Sequence record: PX907401.1
Source: a phage
Strand: one strand, 5' to 3'
Length of the DNA stretch: 44,007 nt
Position 1 is the stretch's first letter; each line of letters begins with the position of its first letter. Below, piece after piece: positions 1 through 44,007 of this stretch. The translations under genes were made by a program, and so were the position numbers. The notes below the pieces were generated by a model. It had not been told where the DNA came from and made no database searches. It saw only the letters and a program-made list of their open reading frames with translations.

Positions 1-70
1 ATTACGGCATCGTTGCCGTGTCCAATGCCTTTTTTCGACAGGCGGGCTTTCCGCATATAAACATTGCGTA
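1..70. repeat. Terminal direct repeat, identical to 43938-44007 (circular closure overlap or terminal redundancy)
   Basis: 70/70 identity between the two window ends, read directly from the sequence. Confidence 0.9.
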
Positions 71-2645: not shown

Positions 2646-2915
2646 TCATCTGCTCAGTCTCCAGTGTTTGCCTACCCGCTCAATGGCGGGCTTCCGGCGT
2701 AATGTAATACGGATCCCCATTGGTTGCAAGGAAGTCCGCACCCTGAAATCGTGTTGTGCTGCGAACTGGTGCAGGTAGCGAGTCTGCGTCAACGGCTTAA
2801 CGTCATCGCGATAACACCAGAATACAGAATCCCCCGCATTCGCATTCTCAGCCCATATTCGTATGCAATGCAGGGGGATATGCCACGAAAGCTGTTTTGC
2901 TCGTCTACGGCCCAT
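2646..2915 (-). CDS. Hypothetical protein (89 aa)
   Basis: ORF packed 10 nt after the upstream gene; no recognisable motif. Confidence 0.4.
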   Translation of the reverse strand: MGRRRAKQLSWHIPLHCIRIWAENANAGDSVFWCYRDDVKPLTQTRYLHQFAAQHDFRVRTSLQPMGIRITLRRKPAIERVGKHWRLSR

Positions 2916-2924
2916 TTTGGCCCC

Positions 2925-3251
2925 TTATTTCGCAAGCTGGGCGAATAGTTCGCGCTGGGCTTTAATCCGGGCGACGTTTGTCACTGCCGTCTCGCCGATA
3001 CCGAAGCGATACGCCAGGCGCTCACGGGCAAATGCGAGCGCGTAGTCCTGGATAGCGTTTGCGAGTGGCTGGATCTCCGCCATCGTGTCGAATCGGTCCT
3101 CCAGCATACAGGCGATGGCCTGCTGCGTGACGCGGACAACGGACCACGCTGCCGATAGTCTTTCGACCGCTTCCGCTCCTTCACTGGCGAACTCCGCCGC
3201 TTCTTGCGCCGCCGCCATAGCCATTGCGTAATTCCAGATTAATGCTCTCAT
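2925..3251 (-). CDS. Hypothetical alpha-helical protein (108 aa), first gene of the minus-strand operon
   Basis: ATG at 3251 with GAGGA upstream; promoter-like element just upstream. Confidence 0.55.
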   Translation of the reverse strand: MRALIWNYAMAMAAAQEAAEFASEGAEAVERLSAAWSVVRVTQQAIACMLEDRFDTMAEIQPLANAIQDYALAFARERLAYRFGIGETAVTNVARIKAQRELFAQLAK

Positions 3252-3279
3252 CGTTCAGTCCTCATGTTGGTGTGCGACC

Positions 3280-3308
3280 AATATAGCCGGGTGCTGGGCT
3301 GAATGCAA
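3280..3308 (-). promoter_or_regulatory. Sigma70-like promoter on the minus strand (-35 TTGCAT, 17-bp spacer, -10 TATATT) carrying the ATTGGTTGCAT motif
   Basis: Minus-strand reading ATTGGTTGCATtcagcccagcacccggcTATATT; about 25 nt upstream of the ATG at 3251. Confidence 0.5.
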
Positions 3309-3449
3309 CCAATATTAATCACGCGCATGAAAAAGTTGATCGCTATCAGCTGTGACTGCATTTTTCACTACGCATAATGCATTGGTTGCCGAGTTCATCC
3401 GCGACCGCACTTCGCATCATGCTGCCGTGTATTTTGCGATCCACGGATT

Positions 3450-3623
3450 TTATTCAGTCTCAGACGAGGGGGGCCGTTGACCCCCGTCTAGTCTGAAAGA
3501 CTGGGGTTTGTCCCGCCTGTCCCGCTCCTCTGGAAGCCGCGCCATCCGGGGCGGGACGGGGGTGCTGTCCCGCTTTGTCCCGCCCCTTGTTTGTCCCGCT
3601 TTCTGTCCCGCTTACTTTATGCA
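3450..3623. repeat. Dispersed repeat element, copy A (about 174 bp; second copy at 31279-31452)
   Basis: Near-identical 5' 75 bp and 3' 48 bp shared with copy B; contains six direct TGTCCCGC heptamers plus one inverted, and hairpin-capable segments. Confidence 0.85.
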
Positions 3624-3696
3624 GTTTTATTGCATAACTATTCATTACAGCTACACGACACGGCAACCAATACGACCAGTTAAAAACGCCCAAAAT

Positions 3697-3836
3697 GGCA
3701 ACCAATGCGCGCAAAATTTAACCTTTTAGCGATATGGGAATTCCCATATCGGCAACCAATGCGCGCAAAATTTAACCTTTTAGCGATATGGGAATTCCCA
3801 TATTGGCAACCAATGCGCGCAAAATTTAATCTTTTA
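3697..3836. repeat. Tandem direct repeat, 54-bp unit x about 2.6, each unit with a perfect 18-bp palindrome ATATGGGAATTCCCATAT and a GCAACCAAT motif
   Basis: Units at 3697-3750, 3751-3804 and partial 3805-3836; palindromes at 3732-3749 and 3786-3803; overlaps the primase stop codon (3826-3828). Confidence 0.9.
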
Positions 3837-6090
3837 AATCATCATCGGTCGCTGAAAGCGTGATGGGTATGTTCGTTTTGATGACGATATTAGACGACCC
3901 ATAGATGGCCCCGGTGTGTGGGTCTGTGTAAAACCCAAGCACGCCGCGCTCGACCATATCGTCTATTGCCTTCGTCGATGTGCCACCTTTTGCCAATCCC
4001 GCCTGGCGGACGATTGCCGATTTACTGAATCCGGTATGGTCCGGGTTATCTTCCATCAGTTTTTCCAGTGCCGCATAAAGCACTTTCTCTTTTTCGTTGC
4101 GCGGTCCGGCGGCATTCTCTTCCTTAACTGCGGCTTTGCCAGCGGCCTTTGCTTGCTCAATGGCGAACGGTGCCAGGGCGACCGGTACGAGATAAAGAGT
4201 CTCGTCGCGTGGCGTGGATGCAATTGGCTTGACGTCCCAACCGGCAACCACGTCGCCGAAGTCAGGCCCGGTGCTGGTGGACTGGTGTGATTCGAACGCT
4301 TCGGACTTGCGGAGATCCACCTTAACCTTGCACTTGAGCAGGACGAAGCCGCGCGGCGCTTGCTTGATGCCGTTACGTGCCTTTTCGTGATACAGGTTCA
4401 ATTGGCCCGGCTGATTGTCGTCCGGTTGCTCCAGGAAGAACGCAGAATCGACAGCGCCATGCAGCGCGCCGGACCCACGGGGAGATCTGCTGCCGTTTGC
4501 ACCCTTCGCCGGGTGGTGGATGACGCCCGCACTGCCGCCTGTATTTTCCGCAATGGCCTTCAGCGCTTTGACCACTTCACCCATATCGCTGGCGTTGTTC
4601 TCGTCGAACGGTTTTGCATTGGCGGACCGCAGCGCAACAGTCTGGTTGAGTGAGTCGAACGCCACCAGGCCAACCGGTTCGCCGTTAGCGGTGCGGTTGA
4701 TGAAGCTGATAACTTCGCGCAAGCCGGACTTGTTGGTGATATCCCAGCCGCGTGACTGCAGATCGATAATGTGCAGCTTGTCGAGGTCGTGCTCATATTT
4801 AATCTGCAATGCTTCTTTGCGCTGGTTAGAGGCTTCACCACCTTCCGCATCGAAATAGAAGCAATGAGACTGGACGACCTTCGCACCGCCGAACGGAATA
4901 CCGGCGGCAACCGCGCCCATCTGCCCCAGCACATAGAAAGACTTACCAATGTTCGACTCGCCCGCCATATACCAGGTCGATTTGAAGTTAATCAACCCCT
5001 CGATAATCGGGTCGTGCTTACTGAACAGCGCAACCGGCTCGTTATCCAGATCCGCATCAGTACACACGCCGTACTCGTCGCCGTCTCCGACCGCATCAAC
5101 GATATGTTCATAGCACGATTCCACTTCCTCATCGTCCAGTCCCGGAAGGATGGCGGCGATTTGCTTACGTGACATGTTGTGCGGCTCGACGTTCAGGTGG
5201 TCCGGGATCCCGATAAGACGTAGCGCCAGGTGCTGGTGTCTGTTCAGTTCCGAGCAACACTCGTTGCCGGTGTGCATACACTTGAAACGGATCTCGCCAT
5301 CCTTAACCATGATAGCGGTTGACCCTTCGCCACTATGCAGATGTTCGTTCGGGCATGGCACTTCATAACCCCGACCGGACGACAGCGGTTCGAATCCTGC
5401 CTGGAAGCACCAGTCCAGAATGCCGTCCGCCACGCCGTCATCGCCCTGGGTTAGTTCGCGGCGTACTTTCTCTTTTTCCACTCCCAGCTTATCAGCCAGG
5501 CGAAGCAGACGACGGACGCGGGCACGCTTGCCGTAGTGGCACTTAATAACGGACTGCTGGTGTGGCAGGTACATCAGGCGGTTTGTATCTTTCGTGCAAT
5601 CGTCGAAGTCCACATCTGACAGACCCAGTTGGTGTAATAGTGCATACTGGACGCGGCCCAGGTCTTCAGCCGGTACAGGCTTGTCAGTGAGCACCAGGAA
5701 ACGGGCGCAACGCGTGCCGCCCTTCAGCGGGTGGCGGTCGCCGGTGGTGGTGTGAAATACGTGTTCCAGACCCGAGTCGATGAACGCCTTACGGCAGCGG
5801 CGCAGGGTGCGGGTGTCGGTGCGGTCAATATCAAAGAACAGGATCGAGCGGTCCACCGCACTGGTCTTACGACGCAATCCGTCACTGGTATACGCCACGA
5901 TGCCATCGGCCTTACGCTTGCGGCGCGCATACTCGGCTTTATCTTCCGTCTTGTTGATATGCACCGAGGAGATTTCTTTCGCATCTTTGATAAATTCGAA
6001 AAACTCATCGGTCGTCATCTGGAAGTTTTCCGCCCTGGCTTTTTCGCCTTTTTTAGCGGGTTTTGTTACAGCGAATTTAATCAAGCTCAT
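3826..6090 (-). CDS. Bifunctional DNA primase/helicase (primase-like N-terminal domain, P-loop ATPase C-terminal domain)
   Basis: 754 aa; FFDIDRTD acidic motif in the N-terminal domain; Walker A GESNIGKS and Walker B-like VAFDSL in the C-terminal domain. Confidence 0.8.
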   Translation of the reverse strand: MSLIKFAVTKPAKKGEKARAENFQMTTDEFFEFIKDAKEISSVHINKTEDKAEYARRKRKADGIVAYTSDGLRRKTSAVDRSILFFDIDRTDTRTLRRCRKAFIDSGLEHVFHTTTGDRHPLKGGTRCARFLVLTDKPVPAEDLGRVQYALLHQLGLSDVDFDDCTKDTNRLMYLPHQQSVIKCHYGKRARVRRLLRLADKLGVEKEKVRRELTQGDDGVADGILDWCFQAGFEPLSSGRGYEVPCPNEHLHSGEGSTAIMVKDGEIRFKCMHTGNECCSELNRHQHLALRLIGIPDHLNVEPHNMSRKQIAAILPGLDDEEVESCYEHIVDAVGDGDEYGVCTDADLDNEPVALFSKHDPIIEGLINFKSTWYMAGESNIGKSFYVLGQMGAVAAGIPFGGAKVVQSHCFYFDAEGGEASNQRKEALQIKYEHDLDKLHIIDLQSRGWDITNKSGLREVISFINRTANGEPVGLVAFDSLNQTVALRSANAKPFDENNASDMGEVVKALKAIAENTGGSAGVIHHPAKGANGSRSPRGSGALHGAVDSAFFLEQPDDNQPGQLNLYHEKARNGIKQAPRGFVLLKCKVKVDLRKSEAFESHQSTSTGPDFGDVVAGWDVKPIASTPRDETLYLVPVALAPFAIEQAKAAGKAAVKEENAAGPRNEKEKVLYAALEKLMEDNPDHTGFSKSAIVRQAGLAKGGTSTKAIDDMVERGVLGFYTDPHTGAIYGSSNIVIKTNIPITLSATDDDLKD

Positions 6091-10452: not shown

Positions 10453-13400
10453 AAGACTTCGAACGCCTGTTTCTCGACACCGAGACATTTAGCGGGGTGG
10501 ACCTGAAGAAAGTTGGGGCGTACGCCTACGCAGAGCACCCAACCACCGAGATTATGATTTGCACATACGCCATCGACGAGGGCCGCGTGCAGACATGGGA
10601 TTGCACTGAATCCCCCACAATGCCGCGTGAACTGCGCAAAGCGATCCGCCATGTATCCCGCAAGAAAGCAAAAATCGTGATGGCTAACGGCCTCCTGTTT
10701 GACCGCCTGGTTATTCGCGAGAAGTGGGGTATTGACCTGCCGGTAAGCCAGATCGAAGACACCATGATTATGGCCTTTCGCCACGCGCTGCCGGGTAGCC
10801 TCGATATGCAGTGCCAGGTGCTGGGCGTTGACGCAGAGCACGCGAAGGATAAGGCAGGCAAGGCGCTGATTAAACGATTCTGTAAGCCTACCCCTAAGAC
10901 CTACAAAATACGCCGCTACACTCGCGAGACTCACCCGGAAGAATGGGCCAAATTTCTGCGCTATGCCGCGCTGGATATTATCGCAATGCGTGAAGTCTAC
11001 TGGCGCATACCGGACTGGGGTAATACTCCGAAGGAAGATGAAATCCTACTTATCGACCAGTTGATCAACGACCGCGGCTTCTATGTGGACGTTGACCTGG
11101 CGAACGCCGCGATCAAAGCGGTGCAGGCGCATAAGGAAGAATTGAAGGAAGAAGCCTGGGAGCGATTTGGCGGTAAGCTGACCGGCAATGACTTCCTGCC
11201 AATCCTGCGTGATATCGCCCCGGCGTTCACGATCCACAACGCGCAGAAATCCACACTTAACGACCTACTGGAAGACCCGGACTTCCCGGACGAGGGCAAA
11301 GCGCTTATCGAAATGCGCCTCGGTGCGTCATCAACGGCATCTACTAAATACAATCCGCTTGTCAATGGCCTGTCCGCCGATGGTCGCCGCCGTGGTTGTC
11401 TTCAGTATGGTGGGGCAAAGCGCACGCTACGCTGGGCCGGTAAAGGCTTTCAACCTCAAAACCTGGCGCGTGGCGAGTACAGCGACGACCACGAAGGGAA
11501 GATTAAACGCCGCGAGGGTGAAAGCGACGTCTCGTTTTGGGTCCGGTCGCACATGCTCACCAACGGCATCAACTCCCTGTTACGCGGGACCGCACACTGG
11601 GCGTATGACATATCGAAGCTAACGGCCTCGACCGTTCGCGGGTGCATTATTCCGGCGAAGGGCAAGAAGTTTGTCGTAGCGGACTACTCCAACGTGGAAG
11701 GGCGTGGACTTGCCTGGATCGCTGGCGAGAAAACAGCGTTAATGGTCTTTAAGGCCGGTCGCGATATCTATTGCGAGACTGCCGGTAAGATGTTCGGCCT
11801 GGACCCGGACTACATTAAAGCCAACCGCAAGGACTTACGCCAGATCGGTAAGGCTTGCTTGCACCGCCATACCCAAGTATTGACCAATGGCGGGTTCAAG
11901 GATATTATGGCCGTAACATCAACGGATAAAGTATGGAACGGCGAAAAATGGGTGAGTACAAAAGGCGCGCACCTTATGGGGTGGAAACCAGTGATAGACG
12001 TGGACGGGGTCTTGATGACAGAAGACCACAAAATCTTGACGCATTCATGGAAGGAGGCAAGGCAACTCGTTTCAGACAGGTGCACGATGGCCCGCGCCCT
12101 GGCGAGAGGTATGGACGCCTGGTTATCCTGCGCGAATTACCAAAACGACAGGGGCACAGACAACTGCTGGCTCAATGTGATTGCGGAGCGATGCCAGGAC
12201 GCGTCGGGTATGACAACGTCCGAAGGGGTAAAACATCCCAATGCAACCTCTGCGCAATTGAAGCGACAAAGCGGTATCGTAAACAGTATTTTTGCTACGA
12301 TGACGCAATGCCAGACGATGCGCACAGAACGCGGCTGCTCAACCGGCTGTCCGCGGCAATATCACGAACGACAAACCCCCGCGCCAAAGGGTATAAAAAC
12401 TATGGCGGTCGTGGGATTGCCGTATGTGACGAATGGAAAAGAGATAAAAGGTCGTTTCTTCGCTACGTTCAAACGCTGGACGGCTGGGATAATCCAGACT
12501 TCGAAATGGACCGGGTCGATACAGACGGCAACTATGAGCCTGGAAACCTTCGGTTTGTCAGCCGTTCGGAAAACTGCCGTAACCGGCGCAGCGTGCCCGA
12601 GCTTCAGCGAAAGTGCGATGAAGCCCTTACCCGCATTGCTGAACTGGAACGGGAAGTTAACCTATTGCGAGCCGGTTTACGACCTGATTGATGTGGAAGA
12701 CGGAAACCGGTTCCTTATTGCGTCTAAGTCTGGTTTTCTGGTGGCGCATAACTGCGAGCTAGGCTTGGGCTATGGTGGCGGCGTGGCAGCGTTCTTGCAG
12801 TTCGCTAAAAACCTGGGCCTCGACCTGTACACTATGGCGGACGTGATGAAAGGCACGTTCCCGGATCACATTTGGGCGGCGGCGAAACGCGGCTATGAGT
12901 ACGCCCGCATTAACGAAGCGAAACGCCCACCGAAGCCTGGCAAGAAGGACGAGCGACCGACTTACATACTGCCGAAAAACGTATGGCTGACGTGCGACGC
13001 GATCAAACGTATGTGGCGAGAGGCCCACCCGAAGACGGTTGCCTTTTGGGCCGAGCTTGAGGACGCGGTGTTGTGTGCAATCCGCAATCCGGGCAAAGCA
13101 TACTGGGCTGGCGCGAACGTTCGCCCGGATGGCAAGAAAGCGCTCAAGATTGTTCGCACGAAGGCGAAGCACGACCCAACCTTCGACGAGGAGCGCGACG
13201 ACCCGGACGCTGCGGGGTGGTGGTTGAAAATTGAGTTGCCGTCGGGGCGCATCATGAGCTACCCCGGCATCGCGCTGTCTGTCACGACAGAGATTGACGA
13301 GGACACCGGCAAGAAGCGCACCAGCACACGCATTAAATATCAGGGCGAGAATCAGACGACGCGCCAGTGGGGGTTCCAGTACACCTACGGCGGCAAACTG

Positions 13401-16864: not shown

Positions 16865-16898
16865 ATTGGTTGCATAAGCATATTGGTTGCATTATATT
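16865..16898 (+). promoter_or_regulatory. Promoter with tandem ATTGGTTGCAT motifs (-35 TTGCAT, 17-bp spacer, -10 TATATT)
   Basis: ATTGGTTGCATaagcatATTGGTTGCATTATATT read directly. Confidence 0.5.
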
Positions 16899-18086: not shown

Positions 18087-18553
18087 AACTACTGATTTGT
18101 GATCTTGATGGCGTTATTAATGGTTCGAGTGATGCACGCGCCGACCTGGTGCCGGGTATAAAAACCAAATCAACATTTTGGGCAAAGTGGCACAAAGCGC
18201 ATGCACGCGAAGACCTGAACATGGATATGCTGCCGCTGTTGCGCATGTACAAAGAGCAAGGCTTCGAGATCGCGTATCTGACAAACCGGCAGCGCGAATG
18301 TTGGGACACGACCGCCGAACAACTGGAGGTCTTCCCCGCAGGCCGGTTGTTTATGCGCCACATGCTGGACGACACCCCGCCGCCAGAGTTTAAGGCGTGC
18401 GCCGTGTTCAAAATGGTCTGCTATGCGGACGTATCGGAACTGGTCGTCATTGAAGACTGTCCGAAGAACATCGCGGCAATTCGTCGGGCGTGCAGCGATC
18501 TGGTCCCGAAAATTTATGCGATAAACGTTGAAAAATTCACTTGCAACCAATAG
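18083..18553 (+). CDS. HAD-superfamily phosphatase-like protein
   Basis: 156 aa; N-terminal LICDLDGVI (HAD motif I DxDG). Confidence 0.55.
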   Translation: MKLLICDLDGVINGSSDARADLVPGIKTKSTFWAKWHKAHAREDLNMDMLPLLRMYKEQGFEIAYLTNRQRECWDTTAEQLEVFPAGRLFMRHMLDDTPPPEFKACAVFKMVCYADVSELVVIEDCPKNIAAIRRACSDLVPKIYAINVEKFTCNQ

Positions 18554-18570
18554 GTTGGTTGCACTATAGT
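18541..18570 (+). promoter_or_regulatory. Promoter (-35 TTGCAA, 18-bp spacer, -10 TATAGT) with inverted GCAACCAAT / TTGGTTGC motifs
   Basis: TTGCAACCAATAGGTTGGTTGCACTATAGT read directly; overlaps the 3' end of the upstream gene. Confidence 0.45.
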
Positions 18571-27950: not shown

Positions 27951-28585
27951 CTTACGAATCCAATAGCTGTTTTAAGGGTGGCGGACACCGTTGCCGTGTT
28001 ATGCCCGTTGTCGGTGTACGACAAGCTCGAACGCTCGACCACGAATAAACCTGTTTCGCCATCCGGCGCGGTGACGACAAACGGCTTGACGAAGTGCCCG
28101 CGAAGGAAGTTGTAAACCAGTTTGGGGTTGCACCACTTGTCAGTAGTCAGCCCGATGAATTGCACGGGGAACTGTTTCGTTTCGGCGTTCGGGCCGTCCG
28201 CGATGTTCTGACCGTAACCGTTACCGAATTGCAATTCCTCGGACCGGAAAGCCAACTGCACGTCTCCGCCGCCTTGCAATTGCATGTGCCAGTAATAAGG
28301 CCATTCGTTTGACCGCGGGTCGTGCGCTTCGATTAGCTCATAAGCCGCACCGGCTTTTGTCGGTCCTGCCCAGTTATCAGCCAGGGTGATGACGGTGTTA
28401 GAGTTGAATGCCGCAATTTTTCCGGTGTAGTCGTTGCCGTCGATGCGGGTAAATACGCGGACCTTCCCGATCTCGCTCAGGAACGCCGTTCCCGCGCCCG
28501 TGACGGTCTTACTTCCCTTAGTTAGTGTGATTGTACCTTGTGCCATAAAAAAGCCCCCACGTTGTAGTGAGGGCCATTTTATCAT
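27947..28585 (-). CDS. Minor tail protein (lambda M-like position)
   Basis: ATGA overlap with the tape-measure stop; alternative internal start at 28546 (MAQGTITL). Confidence 0.5.
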   Translation of the reverse strand: MIKWPSLQRGGFFMAQGTITLTKGSKTVTGAGTAFLSEIGKVRVFTRIDGNDYTGKIAAFNSNTVITLADNWAGPTKAGAAYELIEAHDPRSNEWPYYWHMQLQGGGDVQLAFRSEELQFGNGYGQNIADGPNAETKQFPVQFIGLTTDKWCNPKLVYNFLRGHFVKPFVVTAPDGETGLFVVERSSLSYTDNGHNTATVSATLKTAIGFVR

Positions 28586-31215
28586 CGTTTGTAAAGTACA
28601 CCACCCGGTTTCGTCGCCTTCACGATCTCGGCCTTGACCGACTCAGTGATTTGCTTTCCGAACGCCTGCGCGGTGCGCGGGTCTGGTCCGCTAACACTGG
28701 TATCCGTCTTACCGGTCCCCATGTTAACGTTGGTCGTTACAATCATTCCCCCTACACCACCGGCAGCGGCAACTCCCAGTTTGCCGTCCGGGCCGCGCTT
28801 CAGTGGCATGATGGCTTCGGGGCCTGCCTCCCCCATCAATCCTGCGCCCTTAGCGAACGCCTGGACGCCATAACTGAAAAAGGTTGGCTGGCTTACCACT
28901 TGCCCCGAATAGGCTGCGAGATTGCCTCCTGCGTACGCTCCGCCGTCCGCATTCTTAGTGAGGCCGGAGAAGATAGCGCCGAACAATCCGTTTTTGCCGC
29001 CGAAAGCGCTAACGATGGACTTGAACGCCTGCGATGTAGCCAGCTTGATTAATTCGCTCAGGATGGACTTTACCATTTCCTTTGCGTTCAGCTTGCCAGT
29101 CTCGAAAAACTCGTCCATCGTGTCCTGCATAGCGCCGAACGTGAATTTTGTGAGTGACGACATCTGCATATAGCCGTTACCCATTTCATCAACACTATCG
29201 CGAAGCCCGCGACTAAATCCATCCCATAATGAGGCGTTAGCACCGGTCTGTGCTTCCTGCACTTCCCGCAGCGTAGACACCGCCTTGTCGATAGCGGTAT
29301 CACTAGCGCCGACACGCTGCAAGCGGTCTATTAGCTGCAATTCTTCGCGCAGGTTAGCCGCTTCGCGCGTAGACAGTGCGTAGCCCGCAGCGGTGGCCTT
29401 TAGCTCGGCGTTCTGATTCTTGAGGAACGCGTCGACCTGGGACTGGGCTTTGATCTGCTTCTCTTTCGCATCCAGTAATTTGGCTTCTTCGACAATCTGC
29501 TCGCGCACTTCCTTCACGCGCCCAAACTCCGCCATCTGCTGCTTTTCCGCTGCCGTTAGTACCCTTTCTTTGCTTGCAGCGATTAACTGCTCATTATCCG
29601 CGATCAGCTTGTTTAGTGCCGCTTGCGCGCGTTGCGTGCGGGTCTGCGTCGATGCGTTGGCTTCGATCTGCTTTCCAGACTCACGAAGCTGGGCTAATTC
29701 GCTTCGCGCGACTTCCAGCATTTTCAGCCCGGCATCGACTCGAACTGCCGCCGCTTTTTTTGGTGCGGGGTCTTTGTAACGCTCGTTGACCTGCTTCACC
29801 GCCTCAGCAAGCTCTTTCTCGTCAATCACGCCGCGCTTATTCAGCAAATTTAGGCGGGCGATCTCGTCTGCTCGCCGCTTCGCGTTGGTTGCGTACTCCT
29901 TCTCAAACGCGGCGCGGTCGCGGGCGGTGCGGTTTGCCTCTTCGTTCGCCTTTGCTGCTTCGTCAGCGGCACTTGCGTTGTCTCGCTCTGCACGGTTGCG
30001 CAGGGTGAGCGACGCCACTACTTTTTCCTGGGCTACCAGTTCGCTGTAAAGCATGTTAATACGCGCTTTCTGCGCTTCGGTCATCACCCCACCGGCAGCG
30101 TTTACCGCTTTCATCTCGGCATAGTAAGCCGTGGTCAGTCGCTGCAATGATTCACGCGCTTTCATCTCTGACTCATTCGAGGACTGCGCGCGCCCGACAT
30201 CCAGGATGGCATCCCACATAGATTTAGCTGCCGATGTAACGACGTTCATCGACCGCTCAAGCGTACCCATGTTGGACTTGATCTCATTGGTCATAGTGGT
30301 AAACGACGCTGCGGCTGTTTTGTTAGCCAGCGCCACCGCTTCGGTTTCGCGACCAGCCGTCACTAGTGACTGCACCTGCTGGATCTGCGCTTCGTTTACG
30401 ACGTGATACTTATCCGCCAGCGCACGCAGTCCGCCAACGGGGTCGGTTGACAGCTTCGCCACCGCCGCCACCACATCCTCGATCGGCTGGCTGGACACCT
30501 TCGCAAAGTCATTAACTACCTTAGCCAATGCGCCGAAGTCACCACCCGCTTTCACACCCGCCGCCGCCAGCGCCTGGATTGTGTCACGCGTCTTGCGGAA
30601 TGATCCGCCCATTCGCTCGGCGTTCTCGGATAACACCAGGATCTGGTTTGCAGTGAGGCCGGAAATGTTGCCGGAAAGCGCCAGCGTCTTGTTAAGCGCG
30701 GCGACCTGGTTCTCTGCGCGGGACGTAATTGCCACGCCCACGCCTAACGTTGCCGTTACGGCGGCAAGGCCGATCCCTACTGGGCCGAGGAATCCCGCAA
30801 CATAACGCAGCGTGTTACCCAGTCCGCCGAACGCCCCAGTTAACTGCGGTAACTGCTGAAGCATAACGCGGTGTACTGGCATCCCCATCTCAAGCGTAAC
30901 TGCGATATCCTGTAACTGGAATGCGGCGTTACGCGAGGCAAAGCCCAGGTTTTTGGTCGACATGCCTAACCTGTTGGCGAGTCGTTCCTGTTTCGTCATG
31001 CCATCGGCGGCGCGCTGCGATTCGTTTGCCAGCTTTTCCATTCCGCCCGCGGCGTCACTCGTCACCTTTTTGGATTTGCCGAGGGTGTCGTTTAATTTCT
31101 TAACCTTGTTTTCTGTGTTCTCGGATTTCTGTGCGAAGGAGTCCAGCACAGTATTTGCCGTTCTGATTTGTGCAACATCAGCCTTCAGCGTGATGCCTGC
31201 TGCTTGATCTGCCAT
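28582..31215 (-). CDS. Tail tape measure protein
   Basis: 877 aa, largely alpha-helical with coiled-coil character; hydrophobic Gly-rich C-terminal region; follows the G/GT chaperone. Confidence 0.85.
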   Translation of the reverse strand: MADQAAGITLKADVAQIRTANTVLDSFAQKSENTENKVKKLNDTLGKSKKVTSDAAGGMEKLANESQRAADGMTKQERLANRLGMSTKNLGFASRNAAFQLQDIAVTLEMGMPVHRVMLQQLPQLTGAFGGLGNTLRYVAGFLGPVGIGLAAVTATLGVGVAITSRAENQVAALNKTLALSGNISGLTANQILVLSENAERMGGSFRKTRDTIQALAAAGVKAGGDFGALAKVVNDFAKVSSQPIEDVVAAVAKLSTDPVGGLRALADKYHVVNEAQIQQVQSLVTAGRETEAVALANKTAAASFTTMTNEIKSNMGTLERSMNVVTSAAKSMWDAILDVGRAQSSNESEMKARESLQRLTTAYYAEMKAVNAAGGVMTEAQKARINMLYSELVAQEKVVASLTLRNRAERDNASAADEAAKANEEANRTARDRAAFEKEYATNAKRRADEIARLNLLNKRGVIDEKELAEAVKQVNERYKDPAPKKAAAVRVDAGLKMLEVARSELAQLRESGKQIEANASTQTRTQRAQAALNKLIADNEQLIAASKERVLTAAEKQQMAEFGRVKEVREQIVEEAKLLDAKEKQIKAQSQVDAFLKNQNAELKATAAGYALSTREAANLREELQLIDRLQRVGASDTAIDKAVSTLREVQEAQTGANASLWDGFSRGLRDSVDEMGNGYMQMSSLTKFTFGAMQDTMDEFFETGKLNAKEMVKSILSELIKLATSQAFKSIVSAFGGKNGLFGAIFSGLTKNADGGAYAGGNLAAYSGQVVSQPTFFSYGVQAFAKGAGLMGEAGPEAIMPLKRGPDGKLGVAAAGGVGGMIVTTNVNMGTGKTDTSVSGPDPRTAQAFGKQITESVKAEIVKATKPGGVLYKR

Positions 31216-31278
31216 TGTGCAGTCCCCTTTTTTATGCAGTTGCCGACTGTCATTGTATCAGCGAATTTCAAACAAACC

Positions 31279-31452
31279 TTATTCAGTCTCAGACGAGGGG
31301 GGCCGTTGACCCCCGTCTAGTCTGAAAGACTGGGCTTTGTCCCGCTTGTCCCGATCGGCTGAAAACCGCGGCAGCACTGGCGGGGATGGGGTGCTGTCCC
31401 GCTTTGTCCCGCCCCCTGTTTGTCCCGCTTTCTGTCCCGTTTGGTTTATGCA
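31279..31452. repeat. Dispersed repeat element, copy B (see 3450-3623)
   Basis: Same orientation as copy A; lies in the intergenic gap between the GT stop (31512) and the tape-measure start (31215). Confidence 0.85.
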
Positions 31453-31511
31453 CGAAATTCGAATAGGTATGCACATTTCATGGGTGGGACAAAACGGGAC
31501 GTCCCGCTTCA

Positions 31512-32203
31512 TTATGCGGGGTTCTGCTGCGCCATCTCATCAAGCGCTATTCGTTCCATTAGCTTGATATCTTTAAACGCGCGCTGTTCGTTTTCGATAC
31601 CGTGCATCTTAAATAACCACTCCAGCACGCCGTAGTCGATGCCGTATGCGCCACCAAATCCGGTGCGCCATTGCGTGGAGCAATCTGTGAAGACTGCGAC
31701 TACCTTCGCGTTGTCGGGCCACAGCGCAACAGGTGGACAAACATCTTCGGGGGCCGCGCCCCATAAACTTGCGGCTAAATCTTCGGAGGGTGGCGGCGGG
31801 CCATAAAAGCGTCGCGCCGCCTCAATTAGTTTTTTTCACGCAACCCCATCAGTTCGAGATAGTACGACGTGTGGAACACACCGAACGCGCGTGGATAGTT
31901 GACCACCAGGCGGCGGACGTTCTCCGCGTTAAATTCGTCCGGCAGATTCCAGCCTTCTGCGACGTGCATGATGGCCTCGACCATAACGTTAAAGCCGTCC
32001 GGGTCATTGTCGTCATATTCCGACAGCTTGCGTTCGGTGTCCTGCATGGTCTGCGAAAACTCGTCGATCGGGCGGTGGCGTACGGTAAACGTCATCTTGC
32101 CTGGTTCGATCTCACCAGGGCGCGGGATCTCAATCGGCAGCTTAAAGGTTGGCTTAGGGTCAAGTGTGAAGAGTGGTGCTTTAGCCATTGTAGTATTCTC
32201 CAA
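31512..32203 (-). CDS. Tail assembly chaperone GT-like fusion made by programmed -1 ribosomal frameshift
   Basis: Hand translation of the -1 frame after the slip gives a stop-free 105-codon extension (LIEAARRFYGPPPP...EMAQQNPA) ending at 31512. Confidence 0.65.
31826..32203 (-). CDS. Tail assembly chaperone (lambda G-like)
   Basis: 125 aa between the major tail and tape-measure genes; ends ...MGLREKN with slippery heptamer A AAA AAC just before the stop. Confidence 0.75.
   Translation of the reverse strand: MENTTMAKAPLFTLDPKPTFKLPIEIPRPGEIEPGKMTFTVRHRPIDEFSQTMQDTERKLSEYDDNDPDGFNVMVEAIMHVAEGWNLPDEFNAENVRRLVVNYPRAFGVFHTSYYLELMGLREKN
31829..31835 (-). other. Slippery heptamer A AAA AAC for -1 frameshifting (G to GT)
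   Basis: mRNA reads CGU GAA AAA AAC UAA; X XXY YYZ aligned to the zero frame. Confidence 0.65.
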
Positions 32204-36977: not shown

Positions 36978-37066
36978 GCTATCCCCCTGGGATTGTGGCA
37001 AAGCGGGCCACCCGCTTGACTTCACGCCTTAATATTATCAGCGATAAAAATAATCGCAAAATTCGC

Positions 37067-37096
37067 TTGCAATCCGCGTATTGGTTGCACTATATT
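37067..37096 (+). promoter_or_regulatory. Promoter for the clamp-like gene (-35 TTGCAA, 18-bp spacer, -10 TATATT) with tandem ATTGGTTGCAC motifs
   Basis: TTGCAAtccgcgtATTGGTTGCACTATATTGGTTGCAC read directly. Confidence 0.5.
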
Positions 37097-37125
37097 GGTT
37101 GCACACCAACAACGAGGATATGACA

Positions 37126-39196: not shown

Positions 39197-40700
39197 TGTC
39201 CGCTACCTTGTCCGGGTCTTCTTCGGTAGATTCTACCGCATCAGGGGACATTTGAGGCAATGGATTCTGATTTCGCAATTCGTCTTCCACCTGCTCGACG
39301 GTTTGCGAGTCGTCGATGACGCCCTGCGCCATCATCCACTTGATGAAATCCGCTAGGCGGACCGTGCCAGTCTGCACACCCGACATCATCGCGGTCATAA
39401 GCTGCGCATCAACCGTGATTTCAGTGTAGAACTTGTTCAGCGTCACACGCTGGTCGGCGGTGTCGCCCGTGAATAGCTGGACGATTTGCAGCGCACGGTT
39501 GAAAGCCTTCTCAACGTTACCGGCAATAAGCGACAGGATACTGTTATCAGTCTGCGCATCGTAGGCCGCCTCGGTTGCCGTCTTAGGTGCGGTCCCCTTC
39601 TCGACCAGGGCCGCGCCCAGTTTAGCCATTTGCAATTCGCGTCGCTCACACAGTGCAACAGACAAGTTGCGCTCCTCGGCCTGAATCAGTTTAGCGTCCA
39701 TGTTCTGACCCAGGATGACGCCCTTAGTCGCGCCGAGAGCAATGCCGCCCTTTAGGTTTTTGTCCGCCCATGATTGCGTCAAGCCCGTCGCAACCAGGGT
39801 AGGTTGACCAACGATGTGCGCAATCTCGGCGACGTCCGCTTCGGCGTTGTAGTGCTTAATGTTGATGGATGCGATATCAGCCAGCGGGGCGGCGTCAGGC
39901 GTCGCGTTGTTATCCACCGCCCCACACCAGCAAAACGGAAGTTGAGTCAGTGCATTACCGTCGGCATCCACCAGCGGCACAAGGTCGGTGCGGGTAAATC
40001 CACGCGGCAAGTCCATTTGCACCTCGGACGTGTCGGCGTTGTAGTACCAGCGGCGGGCGTGTGCTGCACCGTTAATCATGCGAAGCTCGGTCCAGATTGT
40101 TACTTCGTGGTTTGCGAAGTCGTCCGGGTCTTCAGTGCTGATTTCGTCCGTTTCCTTCAGCACAATCAGCGTATCGACGCCGTGGGTCTGCCGCCAGTTG
40201 ATGATCTGTTCTGCCGAGTACAGGCGGATAAGCGGGCGGTGTGACGCCATCTCGGCTGCGGTCTGCGGCACTACATTACCCCGTTCATCAAAATGCGCCT
40301 GGCGGTCGTAGTCGACCATAAAGCCTGCACGGCCTGATTGCAGAACTTCAGACATAGCACCGCGCAGGAGTTGCGGAAGCGGCATTCCGCTGCCGTCTAC
40401 GTCGTCAATCAGGTCAGCCATCGCCCCGGAAAGGTCGAGACTTACCGGTTTAGCAAAGGCAACGCCTAACAGCGCGTTAAGTGTGCGGGCGGTGGCGTTC
40501 AGGAATACAGCGCGTTGCTTGTACGCCTTATACCGCGCCCGTGATTTCGGGTCCGTATTGTCGCCACTGGCGGGATGAGGCAGGTACAAGGGGCCGCACG
40601 CCTTCACGGCGCGCTCCCCTGCTACGCAATCACGGATCATTTTCCACTCTGGCGCGATGCGCGCATATAGAGGGTGCTGGTTATCAACGTTAACGGTCAT
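39180..40700 (-). CDS. Portal protein
   Basis: 506 aa; immediately downstream of terL; acidic C-terminus. Confidence 0.75.
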   Translation of the reverse strand: MTVNVDNQHPLYARIAPEWKMIRDCVAGERAVKACGPLYLPHPASGDNTDPKSRARYKAYKQRAVFLNATARTLNALLGVAFAKPVSLDLSGAMADLIDDVDGSGMPLPQLLRGAMSEVLQSGRAGFMVDYDRQAHFDERGNVVPQTAAEMASHRPLIRLYSAEQIINWRQTHGVDTLIVLKETDEISTEDPDDFANHEVTIWTELRMINGAAHARRWYYNADTSEVQMDLPRGFTRTDLVPLVDADGNALTQLPFCWCGAVDNNATPDAAPLADIASINIKHYNAEADVAEIAHIVGQPTLVATGLTQSWADKNLKGGIALGATKGVILGQNMDAKLIQAEERNLSVALCERRELQMAKLGAALVEKGTAPKTATEAAYDAQTDNSILSLIAGNVEKAFNRALQIVQLFTGDTADQRVTLNKFYTEITVDAQLMTAMMSGVQTGTVRLADFIKWMMAQGVIDDSQTVEQVEDELRNQNPLPQMSPDAVESTEEDPDKVADNGEDN

Positions 40701-42961: not shown

Positions 42962-44007
42962 TCATTTCAACATTTCCGGGCTAATGGTTAAGCGCGCTAC
43001 TTCGCCGTAGTTGGCGCTATAGGTGATGACGTTTGCGCTGCGACCTGACATCCAACCGCCACGACTGGCGTAGGCGTCTTTCGCTGCGAGCGTCCTGTGC
43101 TGTTCAACAATCATGTTGCGGGATTCAACAATCTTCTGGTGGTGCAAATGGCCTACGTGCGCGTAGCTGTATTCGCTCGACCCGAAAGCCTGTCTGAATT
43201 TAGCGATCATAACCTGCTCGATAACATCGAATCGCGCTTTGTGCCCGTGGTGGAAAAATAGTGTGGTCTTACCGTGCTGCACCATTTTGTAGACGTCCGG
43301 GGACGTATCCACATCGACGCGCGGCTCGTTCTCGTACAGCGTGTTGAACATCTCAGCAAGCCAAATCATGCCCGACTCGTCATGATTCCCCTGGACGATT
43401 AGCAGTTTGACTTTGTGGTGTTTTTGCAGCGCCAGTTCGACGACGTTGCGCACCATGCGAATCATGTAGCGGACCAACTTCTGGTATCGGGTGTCGGCGT
43501 CCAGTATGTGACCACTTGCCGGAGTGACAGCATCGAGGCTATCAAAGTGGGCCATATCACCGAGGATATTAATTACGGCAGTGCCTGCGTCCGGGGCGCG
43601 GGCGAAGGCTTCGACAAACCAGCGGTAAAACAGGTCTTCGGCAATCGCCATATCCCAGTCTTCGCCAGTCTCCTCGCCCCAGGCCAACATGCCCAGGTGG
43701 AAGTCTGACACAGTGTACAGGTTGAGTAGGTCGAGCGCCTGGATCGGGACTGGCGGGGCGCTTACTGGTGCTGCCGGTGTGATTTCGCTGTTCATGCCCT
43801 CGACAACAGCGCGCATGGCTTCAAGCTGGCGCTCCTTGTCCTGCTCAGTGATAACCCACGACATGACCTCTTCGCCATTTCCGCGCACCAGGGCCGATAC
43901 GCGCTTAACCCCAAACCCATCGGCAACGCGCTTGCGTATTACGGCATCGTTGCCGTGTCCAATGCCTTTTTTCGACAGGCGGGCTTTCCGCATATAAACA
44001 TTGCGTA
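42962..44007 (-). CDS. Calcineurin-like metallophosphoesterase, truncated by the window edge (N-terminal HTH segment is at 1-168)
   Basis: Motifs SDFHLG, GDMAHFD, GNHDE, GHLHH read in the translation; the ORF runs into the terminal repeat. Confidence 0.75.
   Translation of the reverse strand, partial: RNVYMRKARLSKKGIGHGNDAVIRKRVADGFGVKRVSALVRGNGEEVMSWVITEQDKERQLEAMRAVVEGMNSEITPAAPVSAPPVPIQALDLLNLYTVSDFHLGMLAWGEETGEDWDMAIAEDLFYRWFVEAFARAPDAGTAVINILGDMAHFDSLDAVTPASGHILDADTRYQKLVRYMIRMVRNVVELALQKHHKVKLLIVQGNHDESGMIWLAEMFNTLYENEPRVDVDTSPDVYKMVQHGKTTLFFHHGHKARFDVIEQVMIAKFRQAFGSSEYSYAHVGHLHHQKIVESRNMIVEQHRTLAAKDAYASRGGWMSGRSANVITYSANYGEVARLTISPEMLK
43938..44007. repeat. Terminal direct repeat, identical to 1-70
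   Basis: Same 70-nt string as the window start. Confidence 0.9.

Follow-up and report, generated by a model that had tools for sequence, protein, structure and literature searches.

The phage sequence PX907401.1, a stretch of 44,007 nt analysed here at its full length and called the window below, comes from a Dhillonvirus of the HK578/SO-1 group, phages of E. coli, and carries a 174-nt element twice, at 3450-3623 and 31279-31452, which is considered here as a candidate pair of replication origins. An exact duplication of 70 nt joins the two ends of the window (1-70 = 43938-44007); this is an assembly overlap, the genome being circular or circularly permuted with a true length of 43,937 bp, and apart from it the 174-nt repeat is the longest dispersed repeat present. 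The copies have the same orientation and are separated on the 43.9-kb circle by 16.1 kb one way and 27.8 kb the other. MAFFT alignment and a repeat finder both returned a gap-free direct repeat, and a direct count gave 19 mismatches in 174 positions (89.1% identity), distributed unevenly: positions 1-75 are 97.3% identical, positions 76-114 only 66.7%, and positions 115-174 93.3%. An earlier note on this DNA had described an element of 174 bp present twice in direct orientation, with a conserved 5' part of about 75 bp, a divergent middle of about 35-38 bp and a conserved 3' part; comparison of the window with itself recovers the second copy and bears out this description.

All genes flanking both copies have the minus strand as their coding strand. 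The interval in which copy 1 is found runs from the helicase-primase stop codon to the following minus-strand gene (2925-3251), and copy 2 takes up most of the 295-nt gap that separates the stop codon of the G/T tail chaperone (31511-31513) from the start of the tape-measure protein (TMP) gene at 31215, both locations being as the earlier note had them. The coordinates of the features are given in Table 1. The G and T chaperone frames overlap at 31790-31840 in an arrangement typical of a -1 programmed frameshift; the T frame lacks its own start codon, yet it is annotated as a separate gene in several records.

Table 1. Element copies, their component motifs and adjacent genes in the window.
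Feature	Position	Strand	Remarks
Copy 1 (SO-1 'region B')	3450-3623	- (sense)	adjoins helicase-primase gene
TGAATAA box flanking copy 1 hairpin	3450-3456	-	
Hairpin module, copy 1	3455-3503	-	sense CAGTCTTTCAGACT-AGACGGGGG-TCAACGG-CCCCCCTCGTCT-GAGACTG
Two direct iterons beside copy 1 hairpin	3509-3516, 3518-3525	-	TGTCCCGC on the plus strand, GCGGGACA in sense
Core of copy 1, GC-rich, locus-specific	3526-3565	-	includes inverted iteron GCGGGAC at 3551-3557
Four direct iterons of copy 1	3566-3611 (starts 3566, 3576, 3592, 3604)	-	
AT-rich patch by copy 1	3612-3650	-	GAATAGTTATGCA box at 3631-3643 (minus strand) and inverted repeat TTATGCA/TGCATAA
Helicase-primase gene, 754 aa	3826-6090	-	AEP primase-polymerase, Zn-binding Cys/His cluster, RepA-like AAA_25, C-terminal winged helix
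Small HTH protein gene (gp47), 109 aa	6101-6430	-	first gene of operon; Pfam HTH_23 / Sigma70_r4_2
TMP gene	28582-31215	-	downstream of copy 2
Candidate extended -10 promoter TGATACAAT	31252-31260	-	about 35 nt upstream of TMP start, downstream of copy 2
Copy 2 (SO-1 'region A')	31279-31452	- (sense)	T chaperone / tape-measure gap
Hairpin module, copy 2	31284-31332	-	sequence identical to copy 1 hairpin
Iterons of copy 2	31338-31440 (at 31338, 31347, 31395, 31405, 31421, 31433)	-	flank locus-specific core
Extra iteron cluster	31486-31507	-	directly after T stop codon; spacer-free palindrome GCGGGAC/GTCCCG plus GTCCC

Read on the minus (coding) strand, the element is composed of an AT-rich patch with a conserved box, four direct GCGGGACA octamers (iterons), one inverted octamer, a core, two more direct GCGGGACA octamers, a hairpin and the heptamer TGAATAA. 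Each copy thus contains six direct iterons and one inverted iteron, whose number and spacing (9, 48, 10, 16 and 12 nt) are identical in copies 1 and 2. In its plus-strand form, TGTCCCGC, the octamer was counted 13 times over the window, where 1.9 would be expected, with 10 of the 13 inside the two copies, and none of 100 shuffled sequences reached that number; the enrichment is beyond chance. Iteron origins are recognised by at least three short direct repeats in non-coding DNA or in an initiator gene, and these are found in both copies. Neither the iteron arrays nor the hairpin described next had been noticed in the earlier note. The extra iteron cluster that follows the T stop codon is expanded in phage HK578.

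The hairpin module has the inverted-repeat layout CAGTCT-TTC-AGACT / AGACGGGGG-loop-CCCCCCTCGTCT / G-AGACTG, and can be drawn as one long three-segment hairpin or as three small hairpins that are nearly as stable. As DNA it folds with -13.4 kcal/mol (z = -3.5; none of 200 shuffled sequences was as stable), equally well on both strands. The core measures about 39 nt and is GC-rich. On the opposite side of the element, the AT-rich patch beside copy 1 is a candidate DNA-unwinding region by its composition, with an AT fraction of 0.77 over 30 nt that places it in the top 1% of the genome (99th percentile, 0.70); beside copy 2 the fraction is only 0.67-0.70 over 30 nt, and the box is present there as the variant GAATAGGTATGCA on the opposite strand. 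The GAATAGTTATGCA box is kept in every lineage that bears the element. A reading of TTATGCA(C) as a DnaA box was dropped, as TTATGCA is conserved and the CACA part is not.

The GAATAG(T/G)TATGCA boxes of the two loci lie on different strands in the window (3631-3643 minus, 31461-31473 plus), while both have the same orientation in HK578, and this suggests a small inversion between the flanking TGCAT repeats. In phages of the K1H and Jersey types, a GTGAATAGT box stands between the -35 and -10 hexamers of a promoter beside a Cro-like gene, a position suggestive of an operator for a conserved regulator.

The element was matched in 159 phage records, which belong almost without exception to Dhillonvirus (the HK578, SO-1, JL1 and BASEL Bas14-18 group), at two or more places in each; where a third place was reported, it was the extra iteron cluster of the T-TMP gap, as in HK578. 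No match was found in 5,426 complete E. coli genomes or 72,556 plasmids, which shows that the element is not host-derived and disposes of the possibility, raised earlier, that it might be a common host sequence. In 15 genomes that have both copies, iterons and hairpin stems show almost no variation, and the hairpin loop is free to vary (TCAACGG, TCAGCGG, GTCTGGCA and GTATTGT), its variants being shuffled between loci and phages. The core behaves differently. Its identity is 0.83 among the copies proximal to the helicase-primase gene and 0.88 among the TMP-proximal copies, and falls to 0.585 between the loci, so the middle that had been called a substituted core is indeed divergent, although this label misses its separate conservation at each locus across phages: to judge from these alignments the core is no free spacer. 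Outside the core, proximal and TMP-proximal copies are as similar to each other (0.89-0.92) as proximal copies are to the proximal copies of other phages (0.90), and pairs within a genome are closer than pairs between genomes (0.916 vs 0.893 identity; permutation p = 0.003). Similarity across loci as high as within a locus, together with the excess within genomes, indicates that the flanks are homogenised between loci while the cores are held apart; the two copies, as this pattern shows, exchange sequence.

Between the helicase-primase stop codon and copy 1 there are also three tandem copies of a 54-bp unit (3689-3850), each with GGCAACCAATGCGCGC and the palindrome ATATGGGAATTCCCATAT; different Dhillonviruses have between 0 and 3 such units. 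Another motif, GCAACCAA, which forms the core of GGCAACCAAT / TTGCAACCAAT, is likewise over-represented, with 20 occurrences where 2.05 would be expected; it is found at 3305-3813, 16866-16890, 18543-18562, 37081-37102 and eight further sites. Copy 1 of the element has seven of these motifs on its flanks, and paired inverted copies followed by CTATA at 18532-18568 and 37058-37094 resemble promoters or operators. Arrays of the same motif lie near the elements of two relatives, L028 and L307.

Relatives of the phage, some of them designated here by L numbers, were found by a search with the helicase-primase protein, the distant ones being 37-48% identical in this protein. Those at 68-83% protein identity retain GCGGGACA or ACGGGACA. 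Many of the distant relatives have an equivalent architecture directly 3' of the helicase-primase gene, built with a different iteron in each lineage: one or two GAATAGTTATGCA boxes, three or four direct iterons, an inverted iteron, a core of about 40 nt, two or three further iterons, a hairpin and TTATTCA. The iteron is TCCGACA in L024, L300 and L302, GGGATAA in L025, GGGGATGA in L029, GGGGGAGA in the cultured Salmonella phage St162, TTGCGAGT in L308, and TCGCCCCG in L028, which is of the Edwardsiella phage eiAU type. The iteron therefore co-varies with the initiator lineage, seven iterons being found in seven protein lineages, and the element stands directly 3' of a gene for a primase of the archaeo-eukaryotic (AEP) type joined to an AAA_25 helicase and a winged helix in at least seven lineages. 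Constancy of the architecture, combined with an iteron peculiar to each lineage, bears the mark of a co-evolving binding protein with sequence specificity. The hairpins follow the form of a long X-X'/G-run-loop-C-run/X-X', and in six other lineages the design recurs with a different sequence, all examples being far more stable than shuffled controls (z from -2.6 to -4.9).

The second locus is likewise older than the Dhillonviruses. Scans with exact patterns had pointed to a second copy restricted to Dhillonvirus proper, a view that was abandoned once the T-TMP junctions of other lineages were seen. At this junction a sister lineage has a second copy that has diverged and matches the proximal copy of the same lineage at 77% identity over 212 nt. 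The T-TMP gap is occupied by elements of complete architecture, with a lineage-matched iteron, in L337 (GGGATAA/GGGATC), L339 (AAGGGAGA) and L340, where CTCGCAA/TTGCGAG is the iteron of the L308 proximal copy, and the corresponding gap of Edwardsiella phage eiAU-183 holds an element with TCGCCCCG that is 88% identical over 52 nt to the proximal copy of L028. A lineage-matched second site, that is, a distant cis site with the same repeats, thus exists in four other lineages, and the two-locus arrangement, by its distribution, predates the divergence of these lineages. That the iterons of both loci have changed together implies that a shared, sequence-specific factor acting in trans is required. 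Phage St162 has the proximal copy only, with no second copy at its T-TMP junction, so the second site is not universally required.

Several other features were observed at these distant elements. Exact or one-mismatch matches to the IHF consensus WATCAANNNNTTR (e.g., AATCAATAGCTTA) sit between the iteron arrays in the cores of several non-Dhillonvirus elements (L025:5380-5400, L337:2350-2375, L339:1350-1370, L340:1380-1400); there are none in Dhillonvirus cores. The T-TMP gap of the sister lineage (L335:1670-2050, L336:1353-2101) contains one or two moron-like genes on the reverse strand upstream of the element, which encode proteins of 123-126 aa with no Pfam match. The eiAU-183 record (L341, KF772233; 1-221) and L328 (1-96) start inside or right after the T-TMP element, and such starts fit assembly breaks at a repeat present in two copies.

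The iteron itself was also encountered outside these relatives. A scan of viral contigs with the iteron pair CGGGACARAAAGCGGGACA recovered arrays of the heptamer CGGGACA in unrelated contigs, in two settings. In L309, L316 and L318 the arrays lie inside genes of small proteins of the 'replication initiation O-like' or DnaD-like type (phrog_345, E = 1e-21) that adjoin a DnaB helicase gene. Iterons placed within the initiator gene are the classic arrangement of the lambda O gene and its origin. In L312 and L315 the arrays follow directly 3' of genes for AAA_25 proteins of 728-752 aa, which share 25-27% identity with the window protein's helicase domain, and in L319 the array lies about 2 kb from a homologous gene encoding 771 aa. 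The gene that follows the L315 array is convergent, which means that the array is no upstream activating site for a downstream operon.

The protein encoded next to copy 1 is composed of primase, helicase and winged-helix domains. AAA_25 is its sole Pfam match (residues 357-531, E = 2e-19), and in PHROGs it is classed as a replicative helicase-primase (phrog_3228). An AlphaFold (AF2) model of residues 1-350 (mean confidence score, pLDDT, 84.6) has as its best fold match the AEP domain of the cyanophage S-2L PrimPol (6zp9, E = 2e-5, probability 1.00), with Prim-PolC and LigD polymerase domains next in rank. Alignment of the helicase-primases revealed invariant D87/D89 (DxD/H motif), a nearly invariant H120 and an invariant Cys/His cluster. 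In the model of the C-terminal part only residues of about 660-740 are confident (pLDDT 76-89); these form a helix-helix-helix-wing unit that resembles the winged helices of the MarR family, histone H1/H5 and the Rio2 N-terminal domain, with probabilities up to 0.99. The three lineages with GCGGGACA in common have GFSKSAI..KGGT(S/N)T at the start of the putative recognition helix, and every lineage with another iteron differs there. A phmmer search of the helicase-primase against PDB sequences gave no match, and a profile search gave a marginal one to RepA (1g8y, E = 0.069). The 754-aa protein is proposed as the initiator that would bind the iterons, most likely through its C-terminal winged helix.

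A second candidate is the small helix-turn-helix (HTH) protein gp47. A small HTH gene lies upstream of the helicase-primase gene in every lineage, but the HTH families differ, and tblastn with gp47 found no homologue in the distant lineages that bear the element, for which reason gp47 was rejected as a conserved partner of the element. The small HTH protein might be an alternative iteron binder or a repressor of the operon, the latter being more likely by analogy with ORF56 of pRN1.

Other identities of the element were considered and set aside. Open reading frames (ORFs) run over both copies (3460-3714 and 31279-31512) and are annotated as 'hypothetical protein' in several records; a coding function was rejected because none of the reading frames stays open throughout a set of 31 copies from 16 genomes, the best being open in 12 of 31, and single-nucleotide indels are polymorphic at no fewer than five places. 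The 77-aa ORF over copy 2 has no PHROG match. No Rfam 15 family matched anywhere in the window at the gathering score, and a permissive scan of 3250-3900 gave chance-level hits only. An intrinsic terminator was likewise rejected, since neither copy has a stem followed by a T-run: the sequence after the hairpin is GAGACTGAATAA, and a terminator scan of both strands found none in 2900-4000 and a single one in 31000-31900, at 31005-31017, outside the element. A sigma-70 promoter scan found no promoter overlapping either copy. A sponge for CsrA, suggested by the GGA in the iterons, was rejected as well, because the TCCGACA iteron of one lineage lacks the GGA core.

Taken together, these observations make it probable that the two copies are a pair of replication-origin elements, each composed of iterons for an initiator and a hairpin. 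This reading rests on the anatomy of an iteron origin (AT-rich box, 8-bp direct repeats, inverted repeat, GC-rich core and strong hairpin); on the position 3' of the replicative helicase-primase gene, kept in relatives with different iterons; on lineage-specific iterons common to both loci in several lineages; on the joining of an AEP PrimPol fold, AAA_25 and a C-terminal winged helix in the adjacent protein; on the recurrence of the same iteron in O-like initiator genes and 3' of distant AAA_25 genes; on the non-coding nature of the element and its lack of an Rfam match; and on the precedent of phage SPP1, which has two similar origins. We infer the following course of events. The multifunctional initiator, most likely by its C-terminal winged helix, would bind the GCGGGACA iterons and thereby load the helicase at the adjacent AT-rich box, which would melt. 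Upon unwinding, the inverted-repeat module could be extruded as a hairpin and serve as a priming or assembly signal for the primase domain or the helicase, a role modelled on the ssi stem-loops of RSF1010 or the stem-loop origin of pRN1. Copy 2 would bind the same protein and might act as a second origin, as an enhancer comparable to the crr of phage P4 and pairing with the first site, or as a roadblock of bound protein at which forks would stall and so bring on the switch to recombination-dependent synthesis of concatemers, as proposed for oriR of SPP1. Recombination genes are annotated in these phages, namely an exonuclease and a Gp2.5-like protein for binding and annealing of single-stranded DNA in the Dhillonvirus records examined, and a RusA-like resolvase in SO-1.

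Several findings weigh against this reading. The helicase-primase does not require the element at this position, for in K1H, Jersey, SonjaBuckley and L020-23 the element is absent 3' of a full-length homologous gene and a terminator and a convergent HTH gene are found instead. In L338 and L342 the region proximal to the helicase-primase gene resembles the TMP-proximal element at the motif level only. All winged-helix matches of the C-terminal unit have E > 0.001, none being significant for a specific origin-binding family, and the origin-binding domain of P4 is not among the listed fold matches of this model. GC skew tracks the direction of transcription alone, gives no signal at either copy and is uninformative on origins. 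No replication logic is apparent in a constant location between T and TMP, and the promoter-like sequences that follow both copies, as well as their location at operon boundaries, also fit a role in transcription.

Among the four roles proposed in the earlier note, a replication origin is thus favoured, and paired regulatory sites are the main rival, unlikely as we consider them. Under that explanation the iterons would be upstream sites for a phage factor, e.g., the small HTH protein, that switches or insulates the promoters downstream, copy 1 marking the start of a long late operon and copy 2 a booster promoter ahead of the genes for tape measure and distal tail, with the hairpin as a transcription barrier or RNA-processing site. 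Both copies do stand at boundaries within one co-oriented run of genes, the helicase-primase-proximal element of the relatives is followed by a sigma-70-like promoter (of the type TTGACA/TTGCAA-N17-TATTAT), the extended -10 sequence TGATACAAT after copy 2 is kept in all aligned TMP-proximal copies, annotators have called terminators inside the region, and the helicase-primase gene is preceded in every lineage by a small HTH gene. The families of that gene change from lineage to lineage, however, with gp47 lacking detectable homologues where distant elements occur, and the hairpin has no T-run. The iteron is present, moreover, within initiator genes of the O-like type as well as 3' of an AAA_25 gene with a convergent gene opposite, and the steady attachment of the element to the 3' ends of primase-helicase genes is left unexplained by transcriptional control.

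The structured RNA of the earlier note, which would be made within the long minus-strand transcripts and be either a processing and stability hairpin of the RNase III type combined with repeated protein-binding motifs or a sponge that takes up an RNA-binding factor of the host, has been weakened and is now very improbable. The hairpin is kept by compensatory change across lineages, on the transcribed strand and in the same orientation at both loci, and the sense strand is G-rich; but the fold forms equally on either strand, no Rfam family matches, and the iterons differ by lineage while the architecture stays constant. The iterons occur, furthermore, in both orientations and as spacer-free palindromes (CGGGACGTCCCG) that are unable to form hairpins and would suit dimeric proteins binding double-stranded DNA, identical arrays lie within the coding sequence of initiator genes, and the TCCGACA iteron lacks the GGA core that a CsrA-type sponge needs. 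Recombination substrates, the fourth proposed role, are borne out as a side effect only. That the copies should be nothing else, i.e., recombination hot spots or a selfish duplicate used for module exchange between co-infecting phages or spread by gene conversion, with no role in replication or expression, is the least credible of these explanations. It would account for the cross-locus similarity of the shared segments, the closer resemblance of pairs within a genome and the swapping of loop variants between loci. Direct repeats 16 kb apart risk a lethal deletion, yet they are retained in all 159 Dhillonvirus records; both loci are also retained in distant lineages with iterons changed in concert, and the internal architecture is kept where the sequence is not, with cores that stay locus-specific.

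A more specific proposal, advanced tentatively and with some doubt, is that Dhillonvirus, the eiAU-like Edwardsiella phages and several uncultured lineages share a two-site system that has not been described before, in which a fused AEP-primase/SF4 (superfamily 4)-helicase/winged-helix initiator would recognise lineage-specific iterons both at a composite origin of iterons and hairpin 3' of its own gene and at an obligatory, long-retained partner site between T and TMP. This site might be a place of pairing or a programmed barrier to forks, setting the time of the switch to concatemers and coupling replication to the expression of the late tail genes.

The repeats as such are not new. In the GenBank record of Sodalis phage SO-1 (NC_013600) both loci already carry a repeat_region annotation, at 11214-11597 and 40178-40657 and under the names 'region A' and 'region B', with a text that mentions direct, inverted and palindromic repeats, a mutual similarity between regions A and B and a possible function. 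A literature search found no iteron definition, comparative analysis or experiment on the element for Dhillonvirus, HK578, SO-1 or eiAU, and no account of a replication origin in Dhillonviruses or their relatives. Iteron origins are of a known kind, as are two-site systems; the composite architecture, the type of protein and the conserved partner site between T and TMP are what had not been described. Dhillonviruses are among the most commonly isolated siphophages of E. coli and form part of the BASEL reference collection. Should the origin reading hold, it would provide a mapped origin for these phages, a code of initiator-DNA recognition defined by seven natural pairs of iteron and winged helix, and a genetically tractable Gram-negative counterpart to oriL/oriR of SPP1 in which the role of a second origin inside the late genes could be approached. 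The 174-nt direct repeats, in addition, give rise to assembly breaks and to spurious 'hypothetical protein' and 'terminator' annotations, and are sites to avoid or to exploit in phage engineering.

The known systems share parts of this arrangement. The alpha protein of phage P4 is a single primase-helicase polypeptide whose C-terminal winged helix binds the octamer repeats of the origin (PMC4234260, PMC2777425). With the 754-aa protein, P4 alpha and ORF904 of plasmid pRN1 have in common the overall layout of primase, helicase and winged helix; P4 alpha differs in having a primase of the DnaG/Toprim type and an SF3 helicase in place of an AEP fold and the RepA-like AAA_25, and the P4 iteron is TGTTCACC, unlike GCGGGACA. 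Flensburg and Calendar in 1987, and Ziegelin et al. in 1993 and 1995, are said to have dealt with a second cis region of P4, crr, with the same iterons several kb away, which is reportedly needed for replication and adjoins the alpha gene. To our knowledge, no P4-like hairpin module is known.

In pRN1, an operon encodes a small DNA-binding protein and a protein composed of prim/pol, helicase and winged helix, the only essential non-coding region being a stem-loop directly downstream of orf904, and phage BIP-1 has a similar arrangement (PMC4234260). The differences from Dhillonvirus lie in the SF3 helicase, in an origin devoid of iterons and in its single copy. At oriV of RSF1010, iterons are bound by an initiator, the RepA helicase unwinds the DNA, and the exposed stem-loops ssiA and ssiB are recognised by the AEP-like primase RepB' (PMC4234260). 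RSF1010 RepA belongs to the same Pfam family, AAA_25, and the iteron arrays likewise lie beside hairpin and AT-rich patch, but RSF1010 depends on three proteins that are separate, on two ssi hairpins of opposite orientation and on iterons of 20 bp, with one origin per replicon.

The closest precedent is oriL/oriR of SPP1, which is alike in genome size, in the two-site layout and in the position of the second site among late genes; homology at the sequence level is not to be expected. SPP1 is a lytic siphovirus of 44 kb with two similarly organised origins, composed of direct repeats plus an AT-rich stretch and about 13 kb apart on the circular map, one located in the early replication genes and the other in an intergenic segment that interrupts the late structural genes (PMC6316719, PMC3485210). 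Both are bound by one phage initiator, and oriR has been proposed to stall forks and so to trigger, with the recombination proteins of the phage, the switch from theta to sigma replication (PMC6316719, PMC3485210). In SPP1, oriL lies inside gene 38, the initiator gp38, the loader and a DnaB-type helicase are separate proteins, and the host primase is used, whereas the Dhillonvirus element is intergenic, adjoins a gene for a fused AEP-primase/RepA-like helicase and includes a conserved long hairpin.

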